NCBI GenBank assembly: GCA_016217555.1
Contig: JACRHW010000016.1
Location: forward strand, 8,845 to 72,844
Reading direction: 5' to 3'
From: Parcubacteria group bacterium
GTDB lineage: Bacteria; Patescibacteriota; Minisyncoccia; UBA6257; JACRHW01
Length of the DNA: 64,000 nt
Shown here piece by piece: positions 859-41,366 of this stretch. Numbering within the stretch: the first letter of the stretch is position 1; each line of letters begins with the position of its first letter. A program made the translations under genes and the position numbers. The notes beneath the pieces were generated by a model. The model was not told where the DNA came from. It ran no database searches and saw only the letters and a program-made list of their open reading frames with translations.

Positions 859-2982
859 ATGAGACAATATCCTATCGAAAAATATCGTAACATTGGCATT
901 ATTGCCCACATCGACGCTGGAAAAACAACCGTTTCCGAGCGCATTTTGTTTTATACAGGCATATCCTATAAGATTGGTGAGGTGCATGAAGGGGCCGCAG
1001 TTATGGACTGGATGGAACAAGAACAGGAACGTGGTATCACTATTACAGCGGCTGCGACGACTTGTTTTTGGACGCCCACTTATCTCAAGGATGGCGTTGC
1101 TGATTTAGAAAAGGTTAAGAAAGAGCACGAACATCGCATCAATATTATCGATACTCCAGGTCATGTGGACTTTACTGTTGAGGTAGAGCGATCACTTCGT
1201 GTACTAGATGGAGGCGTTGTTGTTTTTGACGGGGTAGCAGGCGTAGAACCACAGTCAGAAACAGTGTGGAGACAGGCCGATAAATATCATGTGCCTCGTA
1301 TTTGTTTTATCAATAAACTCGATCGATTGGGTGCAAGCTTTGAACGATCACTTGCCTCTGTTCATGAACGCCTTACTCCCCATGCTGTACCCCTAAGTAT
1401 TCCTATTGGTTTAGAATCAGATTTCAAGGGCGTCATTGACCTTATCCGTATGAAAGCTGTTTCGTTTGTGGGGGAAAATGGAAATGATATTGTTCTCTCG
1501 GATATCCCAGAAGATTTGTCAGCAGAGGCAGAGATGTATCGCCATAATCTTATAGAAAAAATTGTTGAACAGGACGACGAATTGCTTACAAAATATCTTG
1601 ATGGAAAGGAGATCAGTGAACAAGAACTTCGTCGTGCATTAAGAAAGGCAACGATTGCTGGTGCTATTGTTCCGGTACTTTGTGGATCCGCTTTGAAAAA
1701 CAAGGGAGTTCAGCTTGTGCTTGATGCGGTAATTGATTATCTTCCAGCACCAACTGATATTCCGGCAATTAAAGGAACAGATCCTGATTCCGGAAACGAA
1801 CTCGAGCGTCATCCTAATGACGAAGAACCATTTTCTGGGCTTGCTTTTAAAGTTGCTACCGACCCTTTTATTGGAAATCTCACCTATGTGCGTGTCTATT
1901 CGGGTGTTTTGAAACGTAGTAGTTATGTTTTAAATTCGGTAAAGGGTGAGCAGGAGCGTATTGGGCGTCTTGTGCGCATGCACGCAAATCATCGTGAGGA
2001 AATTGAGGAAATGTACGCAGGAGATCTTGGTGCTGTGGTGGGACTTAAAACCACATTTACCGGAGACACTCTTTGTGATTCTGCTACGCCTATTGTTTTA
2101 GAAAAAATTATATTTCCAGAACCTGTTATTTCGGTACGTATCGAACCAAAAACAAAAGCAGACCAAGAAAAGATGGGTATTGCACTACGTAGGTTGGCAC
2201 AGGAGGATCCAACATTCCGTATTATAAGCGACCAGGAGACAAACGAAACATTAATTTATGGTATGGGAGAACTCCATCTTGAAATTCTCGTTGATCGTAT
2301 GTTTCGCGAGTTTAAGGTAGAAGCAAATGTAGGAAGACCGCAAGTAGCATACAAGGAAGCCATTAAAGCAAAGGCGGAGGCAGAGGGTAAATATATCCGT
2401 CAATCTGGAGGTAAGGGTCAATATGGACATGTGCGCTTGAGAATCGAACCACGAGAACGTGGTGCAGGGTTTGAATTTACTAATGCTATCAAGGGAGGTG
2501 CCATTCCGCAGGAGTTTATTCCTGCCGTTGAAAAGGGAGTGAAGGAGGCAACAATGAAAGGGGTTCTCGCTGGATATCCTGTCGTTGATGTTGCGGTAAC
2601 ACTTTATGATGGATCGTATCATGACGTAGACTCTTCCGAATCTGCTTTTAAAATTGCAGGTTCTATGGCGTTTCAAGAAGCGGCAAAGCGTGGAGGTATT
2701 TCGATTCTTGAACCTATCATGAAGGTCCAGGTTATTATTCCTATCCAATTCCTAGGCGATGTGTCTGGTGATCTCAATGCCAAGAGAGGAAGAATTGAAT
2801 CCATTGATGAGCGTCTGAATGTAAAAGTTATCGATGTAAAGGTGCCACTTTCAGAAATGTTTGGATACGCCACAAAAATTCGTTCCATGACGGAGGGGAG
2901 AGGAATATTTACCATGGAATTTGATAGCTATCAGGAGATGCCAAAGAATGTGGCAGAACTCATGATGGCAGGCAAGAAGTAA
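859..2982 (+). CDS. fusA: translation elongation factor G
   Basis: GTPase motifs [21 protein letters not shown]; full EF-G domain set; ATG at 859 chosen (track ORF starts at TTG 844). Confidence 0.95.
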
Positions 2983-3158
2983 AGGAGTTGGCTTCTGAAC
3001 GTAGTGAAGAACTGCCAAACCTTTACCCCGCCCTCTAAGCACATCGAGCCTCGTTTTAACCTTGTATCCACATGCATAGAGGGCGGGGTGCTCAATGTTG
3101 TAGATAAATTTATCTCGCTCAACATTGGGTCTCGCTCATAAATTTAAACAACATTGGC
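2983..3158 (+). repeat. structured junction element copy A (~176 bp; RNase P RNA-like)
   Basis: Starts at fusA stop and ends ...caacattggc directly before the next ATG; hairpin ccccgccctctaagcaca...atgcatagagggcgggg plus second inverted repeat caatgttg/caacattg; near-identical copies at 38716 and 40385. Confidence 0.8.
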
Positions 3159-3380
3159 ATGAATACTTTCGAAAAAATAAAAAAAATTCTTGAGTATGGA
3201 AGTGGAAAGGCGATTGTGCTTGACCACGAAGCAACCCCAGCATTTATCGTGATGAACTGGAAGGAGTATGAAAAAATACTCCACACCATCGATGTGCTAC
3301 GTGGATTACAAGAGCAACCAATACATCACGTTCCACGCCCATCACACGACCAACTTACTCTCAACGATCTACCTCTATAG
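3159..3380 (+). CDS. small hypothetical protein, weakly Phd/YefM-antitoxin-like
   Basis: 73 aa; ...KAIVLDHEATPAFIVMNWKEYEKIL... resembles the Phd/YefM fold motif; no toxin partner downstream. Confidence 0.4.
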   Translation: MNTFEKIKKILEYGSGKAIVLDHEATPAFIVMNWKEYEKILHTIDVLRGLQEQPIHHVPRPSHDQLTLNDLPL

Positions 3381-16555: not shown

Positions 16556-16703
16556 ATATTTTTATGTGAGAACCTGTGTAGTTGAATGAAATGCGAGGCA
16601 TAGGCGAGAAACGGACTGAGCTGTATTACGGATGATACAGCGAAGGAGTATCGGAACCTATAACGAAGCAGTTCGTCAGATACATAAGTTCTCATACTAC
16701 GCA

Positions 16704-17975
16704 ATGGATAAAGAAACATTATTTCAGGTATTTACCTCGAAGGAGCTACGAAGAAAAATATTCACAGTTCTTGGCATGCTTATTGTAGTGCGTCTTCTCG
16801 CAAGCATTCCTGTTCCCGGAGTAGATGTATTACGTCTCAAAAGTTTTTTGGCATCAAATCAACTTTTTGGGCTTTTTAATTTATTCTCCGGTGGATCATT
16901 TTCAAATTTTTCAGTAGCAATGCTTGGTGTGGGACCTTATATTACCGCGACGATTATTATGCAACTTCTCACTATGATATTTCCTGTGTTTAAGGAAATG
17001 TATCATGAAGAAGGCGAAGCGGGGAGACAAAAGTTTAACCAATATTCTCGCATGCTTACCGTGCCTCTTGCGATGCTTCAGGGGTTTGGTTTTTTACGAC
17101 TTCTTCAATCACAAAGAATTATCGATATCCTTTCGCCTTTTGACATGATATGGAATATGGTGCTTATTATCGCAGGAAGTATGATTCTTATGTGGCTTGG
17201 TGAACTTATTACTGAACAAAAAATAGGCAATGGCGTCTCCCTTATTATTTTCGGAGGTATTGTTTCGGGTGCTCCACAAAAAGTATGGCAACTTCTTCAA
17301 ACATACGACTCAAGACTTCTCCCCACCTACCTCGGATTCCTTATTATGGGGCTTCTTGTTGTTATAGGGGTTATTTTCATCAATGAAGGAGAGCGTAAAA
17401 TTCCTATCTCCTATGCAAAACAAGTAAGGGGTTCAAAAATGTATGGTGGAGGTTCTACGTATTTACCACTTCGCCTCATCCAGGCAGGTGTTATTCCTAT
17501 CATTTTCGCAATATCAGTTCTTCTTTTTCCACAATTCTTAGCGCAAATACTTACTGTGTTCCATATCGAGTGGGCAAGTGGATTACAAGACTTGGTTTCA
17601 CGATTCTATGCAAGCAAGTTGATTTATAACATTGCCTACTTTATGCTCGTGGTACTTTTTACCTACTTCTATACTGCGATTACCTTCGATCCAAGCGAGA
17701 TTGCTAAAAATCTCCAACGTTTTGGTGGTTTCATCCCAGGAATTCGACCTGGTGTTTCCACCGCCGAATTCATTAGTAAGGTGGTAAATCGTATTACCCT
17801 TTTTGGTGCCTTTGGTTTAGGGCTTATCGCAATCCTTCCTAACATGGTTCAAGCAGCAAGCGGAATCAGTGCCTTTAGTCTTGGTGGTACGGCTCTCCTC
17901 ATCGTGGTTTCGGTTGCAATTGAGACGATGAAGCAGATACAATCTCAAGTAGTGATGCGCGAGTATGAGGTGTAA
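16704..17975 (+). CDS. secY: preprotein translocase subunit SecY
   Basis: 10 TM helices; ...GIMPYI.A.II.QLL...; ATG at 16704 (track ORF from 16632). Confidence 0.92.
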   Translation: MDKETLFQVFTSKELRRKIFTVLGMLIVVRLLASIPVPGVDVLRLKSFLASNQLFGLFNLFSGGSFSNFSVAMLGVGPYITATIIMQLLTMIFPVFKEMYHEEGEAGRQKFNQYSRMLTVPLAMLQGFGFLRLLQSQRIIDILSPFDMIWNMVLIIAGSMILMWLGELITEQKIGNGVSLIIFGGIVSGAPQKVWQLLQTYDSRLLPTYLGFLIMGLLVVIGVIFINEGERKIPISYAKQVRGSKMYGGGSTYLPLRLIQAGVIPIIFAISVLLFPQFLAQILTVFHIEWASGLQDLVSRFYASKLIYNIAYFMLVVLFTYFYTAITFDPSEIAKNLQRFGGFIPGIRPGVSTAEFISKVVNRITLFGAFGLGLIAILPNMVQAASGISAFSLGGTALLIVVSVAIETMKQIQSQVVMREYEV

Positions 17976-18005
17976 AAAAAGTTTGGTATACTAGAATTAT
18001 ATGAA

Positions 18006-18130
18006 CCCCGTTAGAAATTGCAACATTTACAAAATATATTCATTGCTATGTTTTATAAAAAGTCGTTTGTCATTAATACTACAGGAAACTCCAATTTCTA
18101 ACGGGGTTTACCTCTAACGGGATGAAATTT
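18006..18130 (+). repeat. ~100-bp element with 15-bp terminal inverted repeats, copy 1, running into the adk start codon
   Basis: ccccgttagaaattg ... caatttctaacgggg (perfect TIR) then tttacctctaacgggATGAAATT; near-identical copy at 20013-20139. Confidence 0.85.
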
Positions 18131-18709
18131 AAAAACGTTGTATTTTTGGGAAGGAGTGGCGCGGGTAAGGGAACTCAGTTAAAACTTCTCGAGACGTATC
18201 TCAACACACAAGGAAAGAAAACCATCTATGTTTCTATTGGTGAGCTTTTGCGTGCACTTGCAAAACAAGACACTTTTGCAGGAAGAAAAGTAAAAAGCAT
18301 TATTACCGAAGGAAAGCTTATCGACGAATGGGTTGCGGCTTATTTGTGGCAAAATGATATTATGACACGTCTTTTGGAAAATGATGCATTTTTATTTTTT
18401 GATGGTTCACCAAGGAAACTCCATGAGGCAGAGGCGCTTGATATGACCCTTGAATGGTTTGAACGCGAAAAAGAGATGGTAGCAATATTACTTGATGTGG
18501 GACACGAAGAGGTTTTTGGACGCCTCAAGGCGCGTGGAAGGGATGACGACACCGATCATGGCATTAAGAGTCGTCTCGATTGGTTTGAGACAGAGGTAAT
18601 GCCTGTAGTGCGTTACTACGAATCATCTGAGCGGCTTCTCACCGTAAGTGGGGAGGGCACCATAGAAGAGGTGCAGGCAAGGATCAGAACGGCGCTAGGA
18701 GTAGAATAA
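18122..18709 (+). CDS. adk: adenylate kinase
   Basis: 195 aa; P-loop GRSGAGKGTQ; follows secY as in the spc operon. Confidence 0.85.
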   Translation: MKFKNVVFLGRSGAGKGTQLKLLETYLNTQGKKTIYVSIGELLRALAKQDTFAGRKVKSIITEGKLIDEWVAAYLWQNDIMTRLLENDAFLFFDGSPRKLHEAEALDMTLEWFEREKEMVAILLDVGHEEVFGRLKARGRDDDTDHGIKSRLDWFETEVMPVVRYYESSERLLTVSGEGTIEEVQARIRTALGVE

Positions 18710-18737
18710 AGCCTGTGTAAACTCACAGGCTTTATTA
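18710..18737 (+). terminator. terminator-like hairpin after adk
   Basis: aagcctgtg taaact cacaggctt + tattaat. Confidence 0.5.
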
Positions 18738-18746
18738 ATAACAATT

Positions 18747-19511
18747 ATGACGGTTAGACTTAAAACAAAACAACAAATTAAAGATTTACGAGAAGGCGGA
18801 AAAAGACTTGCCTCTATTCTCAATACTCTCACAAAAGAAACCCATGAAGGTGTTTCTCTTTTGCATTTAGACCAGCTTGCTGAAAAACTTATTAAAAAAG
18901 TAGAGGGGAAACCAGCCTTTAAAGGCTATACTCCGAGTGCTGCCACAGAACCTTATCCAAATACACTCTGCACCTCTTTAAATAGTGTGGCGGTACATGA
19001 ACGCCCAACCTCTTACCGCCTCAAGGGGGGTGATGTACTAAGTATTGATATCGGAATGATCTATAAAAATCTTATTACCGACATGGCAGTAACTCTTGCC
19101 ATCGGCAACATACCCAAACACGCGCAAAAACTTATTACCACAGCGCAAGAGGCACTTGATGAAGCCATTCGCATTTCAATACCAAACAATACTATCGGAG
19201 ACATAGGAAATACTGTTCAAACACACGTACACAAAGCGGGTTTTAAAGTACTTAGGGAACTTACGGGACACGGAGTAGGTTTTGCACTTCACGAGGACCC
19301 TTATGTTTATAATTTTGGAAAACCGCATGCGGGACTTGTGTTAGAACCAGGGCTAGTAATTGCCATCGAACCTATTATTTCAGAAAGTACTGAATATATC
19401 ATTCAACGCCACGATGAGAGTTTCGCCACCGCAGACAATAGCCTTGCGGCACACTTCGAGCACTCAATAGCAATAACAGAAAATGGTCCCCTTGTTCTCA
19501 CTGTACTATGA
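18747..19511 (+). CDS. map: methionine aminopeptidase type I
   Basis: 254 aa; pita-bread fold motifs ...GHGVG...HE.P...; follows adk. Confidence 0.9.
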   Translation: MTVRLKTKQQIKDLREGGKRLASILNTLTKETHEGVSLLHLDQLAEKLIKKVEGKPAFKGYTPSAATEPYPNTLCTSLNSVAVHERPTSYRLKGGDVLSIDIGMIYKNLITDMAVTLAIGNIPKHAQKLITTAQEALDEAIRISIPNNTIGDIGNTVQTHVHKAGFKVLRELTGHGVGFALHEDPYVYNFGKPHAGLVLEPGLVIAIEPIISESTEYIIQRHDESFATADNSLAAHFEHSIAITENGPLVLTVL

Positions 19512-19897
19512 TTTTAGGCATTGATTATGGAACAAAAAAAATTGGCTTAGCTTTAGGAGACGAGGAGACAAACATCGCTATGCCTTGGCGTATAGTAGAA
19601 AATAAGTCACGGGTGCAGATATTAGAAGAACTAAAAAAAGTAATTTTAGATTATAACATCACGTGCATTGTGGTGGGAGAACCACTCTCCTCCACATCCG
19701 AACGAACTCCTCAGACAGAGATTACAGCAAAATTCATTGCATTTCTAGAAAAAAATATCTCCCTTCCCATCAAAGTCCAGAATGAATTTTTTACCACAAA
19801 AGAAGCACGTATAATCATGCATGAAACAGGACAAAAAAAACACACCATCGATGCCCATGCCGCAACCATCATCCTTCAATCCTATTTAGATAAGTAG
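19508..19897 (+). CDS. ruvX: YqgF/RuvC-like putative Holliday-junction resolvase / pre-16S rRNA nuclease
   Basis: 129 aa; N-terminal LGIDYGTKKIGLALGD signature. Confidence 0.8.
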   Translation: MILGIDYGTKKIGLALGDEETNIAMPWRIVENKSRVQILEELKKVILDYNITCIVVGEPLSSTSERTPQTEITAKFIAFLEKNISLPIKVQNEFFTTKEARIIMHETGQKKHTIDAHAATIILQSYLDK

Positions 19898-19920
19898 TAT
19901 AATACTAATGATGAATCCCG

Positions 19921-19943
19921 TTAGAAGTCGCGATCGCTTATGC
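19921..19943 (+). repeat. degenerate fragment resembling the TIR of the 18006/20013 element
   Basis: atcccgttagaagtcgcgatcgc shares cccgttagaa with the TIR; gatcgcgatc recurs just before the full copy. Confidence 0.35.
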
Positions 19944-20012
19944 CTACCGGGATTAAAGTAAACGAGTATTAATTATATAATAAGTAGTTTGTGATTCTCG
20001 GATCGCGATCTA

Positions 20013-20139
20013 CCCCGTTAGAAATTGCAACATTTACAAAATATATTCATTGCTATGTTTTATAAAAAGTTGTTTGTCATTAATACTACAGGAAACTCCA
20101 ATTTCTAACGGGGTCTACTTCTAAACGGGATGAAATTCT
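20013..20139 (+). repeat. ~100-bp TIR element, copy 2, running into the pgk start codon
   Basis: ccccgttagaaattg...caatttctaacgggg then tctacttctaaacgggATGAAATT; ~97 percent identical to copy 1. Confidence 0.85.
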
Positions 20140-21287
20140 TACGAGAATATACAAGAAAAGAACTTGATGGGAAACAGGTGCTGTTGCGTGTGGATTATAA
20201 TGTGGCATTTGTTGAGCGAAACGGGAAAAAGGTTATCTCTGATGATTATCGTATTACATCGAGCTTTGCATCTATCGACTATCTTTTGGCAAACAATGCG
20301 AAGATCATTGTTCTTGCGCACTTTGGAGACCCAAAAGGCGTTGACCCCATTCTTACACTTCAACCCATCTCTGAACGTCTTAAAGATAGGTATGCTGATC
20401 TTGAATTTGCAAAGACATTTGAAGAAGTTTCCCAAAAAAGCAAAGAAAATAAACATCTTATTCTTCTTGAAAATATACGCTTTTTTGAAGGAGAAAAGGA
20501 GAATAGTAATGAATTTGCAACAAAGCTGGCATCTCTTGGATCACTCTATATAAACGATGCCTTTGCAGTAAGCCATCGCCCGAACGCTTCAGTAGTAGCA
20601 ATTACAAAGCATCTTCCTAGTATTGTGGGTATGCAAATGGAAAAGGAACTTACAAACCTTGATAAGATCCTTACTAATGTTACGCATCCCTTTGTTTGTA
20701 TCGTGGGTGGTGCAAAAATAGGCACGAAAGTACCCCTTATAAATAATCTTCTTTCTCGTGCGGATACTGTTCTTGTAGGAAGCGGTATCGCTTGTCCACT
20801 GCTTCGTGCTCAAGGCTACGCAACAGGAAAGACAATTTATGAGGCGGTAGAAAAAAAAGAACTTACCATGTTGTTTGAATCACATAAAATTCTCCTTCCC
20901 CAAGATGTGGTACTTGAAACAGACAAGGGACCCACTCCAATAAAAATATCGGATCTCAATACTATTTCTAACCAAGAGTATGTTATTCTTGATGTGGGAG
21001 AGGAAACAATAAAAGAATATACAAAGTATATAGCAGGGGCGGGGATAATTGTTTGGAATGGACCTCTAGGCCTCTTCGAAAACCCAGATTTTAAAAAAGG
21101 CTCTGAAGCAATAGCACACGCAATTGCAAACTCAAGTGCCTTCAAAGTAGTTGGAGGAGGGGAAACAGTATCACTTGTCCATGGCCTTGGTCTTGCAGAT
21201 AAATTTGATTTTGTTTCAACAGGTGGTGGCGCCATGATTTCCTACCTAAGCGGCGAGAAGCTCCCTGGAATCGAAGCGCTAAAATAA
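20130..21287 (+). CDS. pgk: phosphoglycerate kinase
   Basis: 385 aa; ...VDYNV.....I.DD.RI......I...........ILL.H.GRP...; C-terminal GGGA... Confidence 0.9.
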   Translation: MKFLREYTRKELDGKQVLLRVDYNVAFVERNGKKVISDDYRITSSFASIDYLLANNAKIIVLAHFGDPKGVDPILTLQPISERLKDRYADLEFAKTFEEVSQKSKENKHLILLENIRFFEGEKENSNEFATKLASLGSLYINDAFAVSHRPNASVVAITKHLPSIVGMQMEKELTNLDKILTNVTHPFVCIVGGAKIGTKVPLINNLLSRADTVLVGSGIACPLLRAQGYATGKTIYEAVEKKELTMLFESHKILLPQDVVLETDKGPTPIKISDLNTISNQEYVILDVGEETIKEYTKYIAGAGIIVWNGPLGLFENPDFKKGSEAIAHAIANSSAFKVVGGGETVSLVHGLGLADKFDFVSTGGGAMISYLSGEKLPGIEALK

Positions 21288-37660: not shown

Positions 37661-37721
37661 GAGATAACTTACAGATTTTAGCTACTAGCTTCTAGGAAAC
37701 ATAATCTAGCTAATCCCTAAT

Positions 37722-37749
37722 TTCCTAAAAGCTAACAGCTAAAAGCTAA
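37722..37749 (+). repeat. CCTAAAAGCTAA-type AGCT-core array immediately upstream of rpmJ
   Basis: ttcctaaaagctaacagctaaaagctaac then ttt ATG. Confidence 0.6.
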
Positions 37750-38262: not shown

Positions 38263-38715
38263 ATGGGTAAAAAACGAGTCATAGAAGAAACAGGAGACCA
38301 AGCACTCAAAGCGAGTAGTGCTCTTCACGATAAAATTAAAGACAGTGCAGGAAAAAGCTCGAGTAAATTACTTGAACGTGGAAAGGCATATATTAATGCT
38401 ACCTATAACAATACTGTTATCGCCATCACCGATATGCAAGGAAATGTGATTGCGTGGAACTCTGCAGGAGCACTTGGCTTCAAGGGTCCCAAAAAGGCCA
38501 CACCTTTTGCAGCCGCAAAGGTAGTTGAATCAGTAAGTGAGAAAATTGCAAAAACTGGCCCTACAAAAATAGATGTTATTGTAAAAGGAGTGGGTGGTGG
38601 ACGAGATTCAGCAATTCGTGCCTTTGCAGGAAGAGGATTTGAGATAGATTCCATTGTTGATATGACTCCTATTCCTCACAACGGTCCACGTCCTCCAAAA
38701 GTAAGAAGAGTATAA
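38263..38715 (+). CDS. rpsK: 30S ribosomal protein S11
   Basis: 150 aa; ...NNTVIAITDMQGNVIAWNSAG..GFKG.KK.TPFAA... Confidence 0.95.
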   Translation: MGKKRVIEETGDQALKASSALHDKIKDSAGKSSSKLLERGKAYINATYNNTVIAITDMQGNVIAWNSAGALGFKGPKKATPFAAAKVVESVSEKIAKTGPTKIDVIVKGVGGGRDSAIRAFAGRGFEIDSIVDMTPIPHNGPRPPKVRRV

Positions 38716-38898
38716 AGGATTTGGCTTCCGAACACAGTGAGGAATTGCCAAACCTTTACCCCGCCTTCTAGGCACAATAACATAAGGTAAATTAAAGAAA
38801 TATGATACTACAAGAATATATGTTACAACAGTATGCAATGTGCTTAGAAGGCGGGGTGCTCAGTTTTATTAACTCACTTCGTTTCGTATAAAATTGGC
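38716..38898 (+). repeat. structured junction element copy B (RNase P RNA-like)
   Basis: aggatttggcttccgaacacagtgaggaattgccaaacctttaccccgccttctaggcac...gcttagaaggcggggtgctcag...aaattggc then rpsD ATG. Confidence 0.8.
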
Positions 38899-39522: not shown

Positions 39523-39572
39523 ATAAGATTAGCTCATAGCTGTTGGCTTACAGGGAGATGCAAACCATTGAT

Positions 39573-39616
39573 TCCTAAAAGCTAAAAGCTAAAAGCTAAA
39601 AGCTAAAAGCTAAACT
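39573..39616 (+). repeat. (AAAGCT)n tandem hexamer array immediately upstream of rpoA
   Basis: attcctaaaagctaaaagctaaaagctaaaagctaaact then ATG. Confidence 0.7.
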
Positions 39617-40384
39617 ATGAACATTCCTCTTCCTCAAGAACCATTATTTGAAGACAAAAAAAATAACATCGGCGTTTTTAAAATAGAAGGCCTTCACTCT
39701 GGCTATGGTATTACCCTTGGAAATGCCTTGCGACGAGTTCTCCTCTCTTCTTTGGAAGGTGCAGCGGTAATATCCTTCAAAATAGAAGGAGTAGACCATG
39801 AATTTACAACCATTCCAGGTGTTCTCGAAGATGTTATCCAGATCGTACTTAATCTTAAGAAACTGCGAATTAAACTCCTTAGCGATGGTCCAGAAACCAT
39901 CCACATACGTGTAAAGGGAGAGAAGGAGGTAACAGGACGTGATATAGAGAAAAATGCAAACGTGGAGATAATCAACAAAGACCTTGTGCTCATGACCGTT
40001 ACCGACAAGAAAACTTCTCTTACCATGGAAATCACGGTAGCGCATGGGCTTGGATATCAAACCTCGGACAAGGTACAGACAGAAAAACTTTCTATTGGTA
40101 CTATCGCCGTTGATGCCATCTTCACACCAGTCCGAAGTGTCCAAGACTCGGTTGAAAAAATGCGTGTTGGAGAACGCACCGATTATGATCGTCTTGTTCT
40201 TAAGGTTGAAACAGATGGCAGTATTTCCCCCGAGGAAGCATTTACTGAAGCAGTAGCAATTCTTATTGATCAATTCAAAGCTCTCACCATAGGAACAAAG
40301 ACAGAAGAAAACCAAACAGAAGCGGAAGACGTAATAGAAGAGGGTGAAGAAAAAACTAAAAAAACAAAAAAGGCAAAAAAGTAA
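39617..40384 (+). CDS. rpoA: DNA-directed RNA polymerase alpha subunit, N-terminal domain only (no alpha-CTD)
   Basis: 255 aa; alpha-NTD motifs (...LGNALRRVLLSSLEGAAV...; ...ITVAHGLGY...) then acidic/Lys tail TEAEDVIEEGEEKTKKTKKAKK; stop directly abuts junction-element copy C. Confidence 0.85.
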   Translation: MNIPLPQEPLFEDKKNNIGVFKIEGLHSGYGITLGNALRRVLLSSLEGAAVISFKIEGVDHEFTTIPGVLEDVIQIVLNLKKLRIKLLSDGPETIHIRVKGEKEVTGRDIEKNANVEIINKDLVLMTVTDKKTSLTMEITVAHGLGYQTSDKVQTEKLSIGTIAVDAIFTPVRSVQDSVEKMRVGERTDYDRLVLKVETDGSISPEEAFTEAVAILIDQFKALTIGTKTEENQTEAEDVIEEGEEKTKKTKKAKK

Positions 40385-40560
40385 AGGATTTGGCTTCCGA
40401 ACACAGTGAGGAATTGCCAAACCTTTACCCCGCCCTCTAGGCATATGGATACAAGATTAAAACAAGGCTCGATGTGCGTAGAGGGCGGGGTGCTCAATGT
40501 TGTAGATACATTTATCTCACTCAACATTGGGTTTCGTTCATAAATGTAAACAACATTGGC
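40385..40560 (+). repeat. structured junction element copy C (RNase P RNA-like)
   Basis: ~95 percent identical to copy B over the first 60 nt; hairpin ccccgccctctaggcata...gcgtagagggcgggg; ends caacattggc then rplQ ATG. Confidence 0.8.
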
Positions 40561-40908
40561 ATGAAACACGTCAACAAGGTACGAAAATTTAGCAGAAAAA
40601 CATCAGAACGCAGGGCGTTTATTAAGGGCTTGAACCACAACCTTGTAATGCACGGAAAAATGGAGACAACTCTTACGCGCGCTAAGGCACTCAAAAGTAC
40701 AGTGGAAAAACTTATCACTGTTGCAAAAAAACAAAATGTTGCCTCATTACGTCTCCTCATGCGTCGCCTCCCAAAGATTTCTTCCAAAAAACTTTTCCAT
40801 GAAATTGCTCCAAAATATAAAGAACGTAATGGGGGATATACTCGCGTAATAAGAGGAAAAAGTCGCACAGCAGATGGTACCACCATGGCTATTATTGAAT
40901 TCGTCTAA
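40561..40908 (+). CDS. rplQ: 50S ribosomal protein L17
   Basis: ATG at 40561 (track ORF from 40474 runs through the repeat); MKHVNKVRKFSRKTSERRAF... L17 N-terminus. Confidence 0.9.
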   Translation: MKHVNKVRKFSRKTSERRAFIKGLNHNLVMHGKMETTLTRAKALKSTVEKLITVAKKQNVASLRLLMRRLPKISSKKLFHEIAPKYKERNGGYTRVIRGKSRTADGTTMAIIEFV

Positions 40909-41272: not shown

Positions 41273-41327
41273 GCTTATAGCTGTTAGCTACTAGCTTATA
41301 GGAGACAAGGGGTACTAATCCCGAATA

Positions 41328-41366
41328 TCCTAAAAGCTAAAAGCTAAAAGCTAAAAGCTAACGTAT
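41328..41366 (+). repeat. CCTAAAAGCTAA tandem array immediately upstream of rpsI
   Basis: tatcctaaaagctaaaagctaaaagctaacgtat then ATG; the track start 41367 implies one more heptamer unit than I could read, so unit count is approximate. Confidence 0.65.

Follow-up and report, generated by a model that had tools for sequence, protein, structure and literature searches.

The starts of two genes, adk and pgk, carry nested mobile elements in the window analysed here, a stretch of 64,000 nucleotides from a Parcubacteria group bacterium (contig JACRHW010000016.1, positions 8,845 to 72,844). Two elements are distinguished, called Y and X. The explanation that fits the observations best, and that we consider very probable as a whole, is that both are transposable elements of the miniature inverted-repeat kind (MITEs) of one family, that X entered the first codons of adk and pgk at A/TGAA (slashes mark the borders of elements and of duplicated host sequence), that Y is nested in X, and that the coding partner of the family is a short element with a GIY-YIG nuclease gene. 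A nuclease acting in trans and a host that tolerates insertions at start codons would complete this explanation.

Nested elements at the starts of adk and pgk

The two insertions lie in a region with the gene order ribosomal-protein operon, secY, adk, map, ruvX and pgk. Within the window, 18005-18117 and 20012-20124 align without gaps at 97% identity, and the two copies of Y (18006-18106 and 20013-20113) are unlike at a single one of 101 positions, 18064. A repeat of 101 bp with 99% identity cannot be chance. A first-pass annotation of the window had described these two copies of about 100 bp as they are, together with their perfect 15-bp terminal inverted repeats (TIRs; CCCCGTTAGAAATTG and CAATTTCTAACGGGG, exact in both copies) and their shared 3' flank, t(t/c)tac(c/t)tctaa(a)cgggATGAAATT. 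Y forms a strong hairpin (-32.6 kcal/mol and z -3.1 as RNA, z -4.4 as DNA). A 24-mer of Y gave no match in the metagenome scan, and Y is known from the window and from one related locus, L121, only.

Both loci hold two distinct elements, Y nested within X. At pgk, X is complete, with imperfect TIRs of its own (CCCGTTAGAAGT… and …ACTTCTAAACGGG); it stands between direct TGAA repeats and has Y in its right arm, the layout being TATAAT-7 nt-A/TGAA/T CCCGTTAGAAGTCGCGATCG … GATCGCGA/TCTA/(Y)/TCTA/C TTCTAAACGGG A/TGAA/ATTC. At adk, X is reduced to its right arm, directly 3' of Y and TTTA: TATACT-8 nt-A/TGAA/(Y)/TTTA/C CTCTAACGGG A/TGAA/ATTT. The point of insertion of X is the start codon itself, A/TGAA/X/TGAA, where TGAA is a 4-bp target-site duplication. 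At both genes the terminal base of X is the A of ATG and the TGAA that follows is duplicated host sequence, and a second ATGAA is found just 5' of the left end (Table 1). Both elements are short (Y 101 bp, X about 110 bp minus Y) and non-coding, with no open reading frames (ORFs) except upstream ORFs that read into them.

The distinction between X and Y changes how two smaller features are read. The octamer ctaacggg, which occurs twice and had been thought a duplicated target site, is really formed by the right TIRs of Y and X, in this order, as the X without Y in the related locus L122 makes clear. What had been noted at 19921 as a degenerate TIR fragment is indeed a piece of a TIR; it is not degenerate, being the exact CCCGTTAGAA of the X left TIR at 19917-19926. 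Taken alone this 10-mer is not significant in the window, with 7 matches at up to one mismatch and 3.8 expected.

Relatives found by a homologue search, with Pgk proteins 78-82% identical, provide orthologous sites with and without the elements. The window has Y and the right arm of X at adk, and X with Y at pgk. L121 has a complete X with Y between TCTA repeats at adk and an empty site at pgk, tataatactaattATGAAATTT. L122 is empty at adk, tatactataaacATGAAATTC, and at pgk has X without Y, with the vacant Y target GATTTACCTCTAACGGG. L123 also has X without Y at pgk, and L223 and L224 are empty there. Presence/absence polymorphism is thus found at the orthologous adk and pgk sites, and the target duplications have a fixed length (for X, TGAA at adk and pgk; for Y, TCTA at pgk). 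At the level of sequence, this comparison shows insertions that are precise and accompanied by a 4-bp duplication, and it shows X and Y as mobile, non-coding, MITE-type members of one TIR family. The MITE-like character proposed for the repeat in the first-pass annotation is borne out by these TIRs, target duplications and empty and filled sites.

The Y of L121 is identical to the window adk copy at 101 of 101 positions amid flanking genes with 78-84% DNA identity and X parts that are correspondingly diverged, so the arrival of Y postdates the split of the window and L121 lineages. The same spot of X was entered by Y at least twice. This implies a recent horizontal spread of Y and a strong preference for TNNA adjoining a resident TIR. 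Adjacent or nested copies of the family are common in other loci too (L009, L030, L034, L045, L071 and L107). At adk, the left duplication copy of Y was presumably lost along with the left part of X.

Y had also been proposed to be a portable promoter, leader and start-codon cassette that supplies transcription and ATG-AAA-TT. The position of both copies directly 5' of genes that start ATGAAATT and the enrichment of family members at gene starts agree with this idea, but the empty sites in relatives already read ATGAAATT, so that this start, and with it Met-Lys-Phe, is native to both genes. The claim that the element brings the start codon and first codons holds for the A alone, which is the last base of the outer element X; the remainder is host sequence. 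The right arm of X stands between Y and the ATG. A promoter and terminator scan gave no excess (6 sigma-70-like sites, 6.0 expected), and likely native -10 boxes lie 5' of the insertions. Members of the family have symmetric ends, and start codons adjoin them on either side. A cassette is for these reasons very improbable.

Even less probable is that the repeat is a conserved cis-regulatory RNA of adk and pgk, such as an attenuator, a riboswitch or an RNase III site. There is a strong hairpin directly 5' of the start codon, and at adk the 5' arm could pair with either of two 3' arms. However, the repeat is missing from the same genes in close relatives, its interior is not conserved between genomes, and target duplications are present. 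Rfam gave no match at gathering score in the whole window, and a permissive search of 17800-20400 gave only sub-threshold look-alikes of miRNA hairpins (E 0.07-2).

Table 1. Features of the nested insertions at adk and pgk (positions in the window).
Feature	Position	Strand	Remarks
Native -10-like box TATACT (putative function)	17987..17992	+	8 nt 5' of original adk ATG; 6 nt in the empty site of L122
Original adk start ATGAA	18001..18005	+	TGAA 18002-18005 is the left duplication copy of X; compared with L122 (empty) and L121 (filled)
Element Y, copy 1, 101 bp, non-coding	18006..18106	+	TIRs 18006-18020 and 18092-18106; 101/101 copy at L121:2099-2199
TTTA, probable right duplication copy of Y	18107..18110	+	Y-less X of L122 reads GATTTACCTCTAACGGG; TCTA/TCTA at the other two Y copies
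X right-arm remnant CCTCTAACGGGA	18111..18122	+	A18122 is the A of the adk ATG; complete X with Y at the adk start in L121
TGAA, right duplication copy of X	18123..18126	+	Coding bases 2-5 of adk, whose ATG is 18122-18124
Upstream ORF, 38 codons (MNPVRN…GVYL*)	18001..18117	+	From the displaced ATG through Y; TAA 18115-18117, 4 nt 5' of the adk ATG
Native -10-like box TATAAT	19898..19903	+	7 nt 5' of original pgk ATG; same spacing in the empty site of L121
Original pgk start ATGAA	19911..19915	+	TGAA 19912-19915 is the left duplication copy of X; empty in L121, L223 and L224
Element X, complete, with Y nested	19916..20130	+	Left arm TCCCGTTAGAAGTCGCGATCG…; right arm CTTCTAAACGGGA 20118-20130; A20130 is the A of the pgk ATG
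TCTA, left duplication copy of Y within X	20009..20012	+	Window sequence
Element Y, copy 2, 101 bp	20013..20113	+	1 difference from copy 1
TCTA, right duplication copy of Y	20114..20117	+	Window sequence
TGAA, right duplication copy of X	20131..20134	+	Coding bases 2-5 of pgk, whose ATG is 20130-20132

A family of terminal inverted repeats across phyla

The family was sought as CCCGTTAGAAA-N60-90-TTTCTAACGGG in one genome per species. The TIR core YCCCGTTAGA…TCTAACGGGR (here Y is a pyrimidine and R a purine) with TNNA duplications occurs at no fewer than 120 loci in genomes labelled as at least eight phyla. The labels comprise many classes of Patescibacteria, Omnitrophota, Planctomycetota, Thermodesulfobacteriota or 'Deltaproteobacteria', Nitrospirota, Edwardsbacteria, Stahlbacteria, Bdellovibrionales and a few others; they are the record titles of bins of metagenome-assembled genomes, a few of which may be mis-binned. 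The database scans demanded exact TIR cores, so that the counts are lower bounds and the size ranges are biased; the 82-112-nt sizes of the main set mirror the search pattern. Mini-versions of 26-31 nt occur. The interiors are unlike between genomes, although sub-families exist, for example an X type with GATCGCGATC beside the TIR (L009, L048 and L210).

The flanks of 121 listed copies follow a common rule, with T at -5 (105 copies), A at -2 (107), a pyrimidine at -1, a purine at +1, T at +2 (100) and A at +5 (105). The middle dinucleotide of the flank is repeated directly in 78 copies and in inverted form in 4, and the 4-bp duplication is exact in 73 of the 121. Deviant 4-mers are also repeated on both sides (TGAG, CGTG and CTCA). 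The flanks could also be read as a duplication of 2 bp next to a longer TIR, but this reading was rejected because these outer bases other than T and A recur on both sides as direct repeats. Judged from the flanks, the element is pyrimidine-CCCGTTAGA…TCTAACGGG-purine with a duplication of 4 bp, for which TNNA is preferred.

The 26-31-nt palindromic units and the intergenic doublets of about 100 nt recall REP or REPIN-type palindromes moved by a RAYT (Y1 HUH) transposase. REP elements have a conserved 5' GTAG and are not known to make a duplication; here there is a 4-bp duplication and no GTAG, and no RAYT-like gene was found near any copy in the fetched loci. This origin is hardly credible, and of all the explanations weighed it is the least likely.

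The clustering at gene starts that had been noticed for the two window copies holds for the family when the TIR is searched across genomes. Of 122 listed copies, 43 (35%) adjoin an ATG or GTG with at least 80 open codons behind it; the figure for all RTNNA sites of those loci is 4.8%. By eye, the adjoining N-termini resemble those of topA, clpP, hisA, hpf and a nucleotidyltransferase. Another set of copies sits in -35 boxes, TTGA/C…G/TTGACA-N17-TATAAT, and leaves the promoter signal intact.

In several respects X and Y are like the Correia elements of Neisseria and ERIC and RUP, which are bacterial MITEs of 5' regions: all are about 100-150 bp long, dispersed, non-coding and hairpin-forming, have TIRs and a target duplication, and are co-transcribed with their neighbours. 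Correia, ERIC and RUP elements differ in that they duplicate TA, belong to a single genus and have a known or presumed origin from a DDE insertion sequence (IS). In contrast, the X/Y family has a 4-bp TNNA duplication, the same core of 10-13 nt in at least eight labelled phyla, insertions exactly within start codons and, as sole coding partner, a GIY-YIG nuclease gene. The literature search, of incomplete coverage, turned up no account of the TIR, of MITEs from these phyla or of a GIY-YIG gene carried by TIR elements of bacteria, and the family is apparently undescribed so far. Its discovery brings to light one conserved end of 10-13 nt across Patescibacteria, Omnitrophota, Planctomycetota, Thermodesulfobacteriota, Nitrospirota and others.

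TIR pairs of the family were also seen in two scans of IMG/VR, on twelve contigs labelled as viral (L124-L135), and phages might be a vehicle of spread. In three loci, TIR motifs lie directly beside tRNA genes (L043:5058-5165, L011 at about 2020 and L076 at about 5190); in L043 a whole tRNA-like sequence stands between two of them.

The GIY-YIG coding element and its possible role in mobility

A gene that could move the family was sought with unpaired TIRs, with long-range TIR pairs that have matching flanks, and among the ORFs alongside. No transposase gene was found between or beside the TIRs in about 1.2 Mb of loci around more than 200 copies, and the neighbours are housekeeping genes. The sole gene between TIRs, in about 1 Mb of loci, encodes a GIY-YIG protein of 89 amino acids on an Omnitrophota contig (L025:6920-7198). 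It has 1,746 homologues at E<1e-5. The best 120 of these are 86-151 amino acids long (mostly 86) and 70-85% identical, come from Omnitrophota, Patescibacteria and Flavobacteriales, and are mostly on short contigs, as happens with repeats.

A survey of 80 further metagenome loci gave a uniform picture of the GIY-YIG unit. The right TIR is present at 73 of 73 genes and the left TIR at 69 of 73, lying 16-21 nt 5' of the ATG in 62 of 70, and the unit is 273-284 bp long. The TIR is exactly 13 bp; past position 13, complementarity falls to 13-46% per position. Positions 1, 3, 9, 12 and 13 covary between the two ends, with 56 distinct pairs. The reading frame closes with …FLSLTG, which the right TIR encodes. 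In 47 of 70 elements translation would stop at the flank's first TGA or TAA, which starts right after the terminal purine, and the duplicated target usually supplies this stop codon. Such dual coding, in which one TIR also specifies the C-terminal residues of the nuclease, explains the conservation of the TIR. One sub-family shares sequence past the right end, which places its true boundary further out.

The TIR of these units, YCCCGTTAGAGAN, has 10-12 of 13 positions in common with X and Y, the flanks obey the T-N-N-A rule as well, and the units occur on the same contigs as TIR-only elements (28 pairs in 193 kb). In L210, an X-type MITE lies beside two GIY-YIG units. An empty site was found for one unit: in L226 the stop codon of a methyltransferase gene overlaps the start of a glycosyltransferase gene, caaA/TGAA/aatagg, and in a 74%-identical relative, L136, the site is filled, aaaA/TGAA/C…GIY-YIG…G/TGAA/aatcgg. 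The old start codon in L136 is in frame with the nuclease (MNPVRDYS-MFYTY…), and the nuclease stop overlaps a rebuilt host GTG (GTGA), so that the overlapping stop/start arrangement is recreated. That the GIY-YIG ORF is as a general rule fused in frame with the start of the host gene was also considered and rejected, the three frames being used 21, 12 and 37 times, and 12 of 23 units with a start at -6 being in frame. Across the loci surveyed, the coding members of the family carry the GIY-YIG gene and no other.

The 86-amino-acid protein matches Pfam PF01541 at 52.6-68.4 bits (cut-off 22.6), and the positions expected to be catalytic (Y5, Y16, R26, H30, E62 and N76) are invariant in 18 sequences. 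Among solved structures it is nearest to the UPF0213 proteins BH0048 (PDB 1zg2) and EF2693 (1ywl), at E 7e-10. The AlphaFold2 model has a predicted local distance difference test score (pLDDT) of 90.5, and its best structural matches are UPF0213 (the top Foldseek hit), Slx1, I-TevI and the N-terminal domain of UvrC. By sequence and predicted fold, the nuclease is of the Slx1/UPF0213-like type. UPF0213 and other stand-alone Slx1-like proteins of prokaryotes are thus its nearest kin; they have no known link to TIRs or mobility, unlike the TIR-linked clade with its invariant, TIR-encoded C-terminus FLSLTG. Stand-alone prokaryotic GIY-YIG proteins grouped with Slx1 consist of a minimal GIY-YIG domain without extra domains (PMC1564403). 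The wider family of small GIY-YIG proteins has 12,301 representatives at 50% identity (E≤1e-3). Two distant GIY-YIG genes in Patescibacteria (L103:5205-5441 and L001:4427-4651), 28-29% identical to the TIR-linked clade, lie between duplicated pieces of the 5' part of tRNA genes and are a different kind of GIY-YIG insertion.

The most serious alternative is that X and Y are MITEs of an IS with a DDE transposase, for example one like IS1380 or piggyBac with its 4-bp duplication and CCC ends, and that the GIY-YIG gene is cargo or a passenger. A 4-bp duplication with TIRs is the signature of DDE cut-and-paste transposition, the ends start (Y)CCC as in piggyBac and IS1380, and strand transfer is not known for GIY-YIG enzymes. 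PiggyBac is linked to the IS1380 superfamily, and the likeness extends to a 4-bp T..A duplication (TTAA in piggyBac), CCC…GGG ends, empty sites that look precise, and the end CCCTAGAAAG, which resembles CCCGTTAGAAA. However, the X/Y family is 10 times smaller, its TNNA target is not strictly TTAA, and no DDE transposase gene turned up in the roughly 1.2 Mb of loci. All 73 GIY-YIG genes of the clade are bracketed by TIRs, with a frame that ends in the right TIR as in many IS transposases, and their proteins are 65-85% identical across phyla, as expected of an element's own gene. We consider a DDE origin possible but unlikely.

The GIY-YIG domain is also the classic fold of homing endonucleases, and the protein weakly matches TIGR01453 (group I intron endonuclease), besides its structural likeness to I-TevI. 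The element could on this account be copied in by homologous recombination after cleavage of empty sites, and the MITEs likewise or by descent. As in I-TevI and Seg, which are intron-borne or free-standing homing endonucleases, a selfish GIY-YIG nuclease gene would spread, but those enzymes insert by homologous recombination into one cognate site, without TIRs or duplication, and have DNA-binding domains. Homing requires homologous flanks and leaves no target duplication, and homing endonucleases do not recognise their own element (PMC1564403). In the TIR family, by contrast, there are many unrelated sites (adk, pgk, topA, clpP and -35 boxes), 4-bp duplications and covarying 13-bp TIRs, and the protein has only 86 amino acids and no DNA-binding extension like that of I-TevI. 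Homing is improbable.

In the explanation we prefer, that of nested MITEs with a GIY-YIG coding partner, the GIY-YIG nuclease would act in trans, cutting element ends and targets and thereby moving X and Y. Relatives of Slx1 cut branched and hairpin DNA, which makes it conceivable that the nuclease recognises extruded TIR hairpins. X entered the first codons of adk and pgk at A/TGAA and duplicated TGAA; its end …CGGGA and the duplicated TGAA rebuild ATGAA, and the native N-terminus is kept. Y later entered the right arm of X, at T(C/T)TA adjoining the X TIR, and at adk the left part of X was lost after that insertion.

A further step is to regard the TIR-GIY-YIG-TIR unit of 273-284 bp as an autonomous transposon of a new mechanistic class, in which an Slx1-like nuclease of 86 amino acids takes the place of a DDE, HUH, serine or tyrosine enzyme, recognises the 13-bp ends, perhaps as extruded hairpins, and TNNA targets, and moves itself and a large population of MITEs, X and Y included, across many phyla. 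We put this forward tentatively, as a possibility that falls short of probable. Start codons and overlapping stop/start junctions would then be preferred sites, at which the nuclease would be expressed from initiation signals of the host and the duplicated TGAA would restore the stop codon of the element as well as the start codon of the host. If true, this would be by far the smallest autonomous transposon known. If the nuclease does mobilise the elements, it would represent a new transposition chemistry in a minimal selfish element of about 275 bp, and possibly a compact tool.

The host would tolerate insertions at start codons because Shine-Dalgarno sequences are not seen in its genome and many genes seem to be leaderless. 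No convincing Shine-Dalgarno sequence precedes any of about 39 window genes, a weak AGGA at -15 being the one candidate, and in several of them the ATG follows a TATAAT-like box at a distance of 6-8 nt (for example at 844, 22911, 23521 and 35847). This suggests that initiation in the window is widely leaderless or independent of Shine-Dalgarno sequences. In the empty adk and pgk sites a -10-like box stands 6-7 nt 5' of the ATG, and both genes are therefore probably leaderless as well. Once an element has inserted, transcription would begin at the displaced ATG, from which an upstream ORF would be read. In the case of adk this ORF runs for 38 codons through Y and stops just before the rebuilt ATG, a layout of termination and reinitiation; it may be translated, with adk coupled to it. 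Family-wide, an open upstream frame is commoner (17 of 51) than an open frame of the other usable kind (8 of 51), and the element is read through in frame in 3 of 37 scored start-codon copies. The latter sets the family apart from the Rickettsia palindromic elements, which lie in frame within genes of one genus. These are also palindromic and are tolerated in or next to coding sequence because the frame is kept, whereas an X/Y-type insertion rebuilds the start codon. The rule of insertion at start codons amounts to a natural experiment on leaderless and Shine-Dalgarno-independent translation in uncultivated bacteria.

Several observations do not sit well with the preferred explanation. The left duplication of Y is missing at adk, exact duplications flank only 20 of 69 coding elements, and there is no GIY-YIG gene within the 64-kb window. 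We know of no GIY-YIG nuclease that transposes DNA with target duplications. Selection on survivors, and not targeting, may lie behind the enrichment at start codons. Internally, X, Y and most MITEs show no relation to the GIY-YIG element, with weak similarity in 3 of 125, and the idea that X and Y are simple deletion derivatives of it was rejected on this count; the link between MITEs and nuclease therefore rests on the TIRs, the target rule and co-occurrence. The upstream ORF at pgk ends after 16 codons, about 170 nt 5' of pgk, so internal initiation independent of a Shine-Dalgarno sequence must suffice there, and among 37 start-codon insertions only 14 have an upstream ORF that stays open as far as the right TIR. 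Translational coupling can for these two reasons not be the general way in which expression is kept. It was discarded as a universal rule and retained as a partial explanation.

Gene annotation and other repeats

The insertions affect public gene calls, and the start annotation of adk and pgk is corrected here for the window. Two pgk products of relatives, P0003 and P0005, are extended into X by 11 residues (396 amino acids as against 385). P0171 has an N-terminal extension of 18 residues (…MNPVRDYS) derived from upstream sequence and the left TIR, and some GIY-YIG products (P0171 and P0206) show the TIR-encoded MNPVRD at the N-terminus or VNPVRD past the C-terminus.

Other repeats were seen near the two insertions and elsewhere in the window. 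The rplO-secY spacer (16556-16703) has a different repeat of about 100 nt (core 16582-16678), 84% identical, in opposite orientation, to L121:1814-1915 in the secY-adk spacer of that locus; the rplO-secY spacer of L121 is only about 13 bp. By its sequence this looks like a second, unrelated MITE-like family. A structured repeat is present in three copies that are 76-89% identical (2974-3188, 38713-38867 and 40376-40590), with the internal inverted repeats AAAGGATTTGGC…GCCAAACCTTT and ACCCCGCCCTCTAAGCAC…GTGCATAGAGGGCGGGGT and no Rfam match. Runs of the heptamer AGCTAAA (CTAAAAG) lie directly 5' of ORF starts at 37710-37749, 39560-39613 (ORF at 39617) and 41315-41354. In the Hainich relatives L122 (2769-3900) and L123, two extra genes between ruvX and pgk, one encoding a membrane-like ORF of 109 amino acids and the other of the Trp-repressor family, are bracketed by ctatgctgtagcatagtcg repeats.

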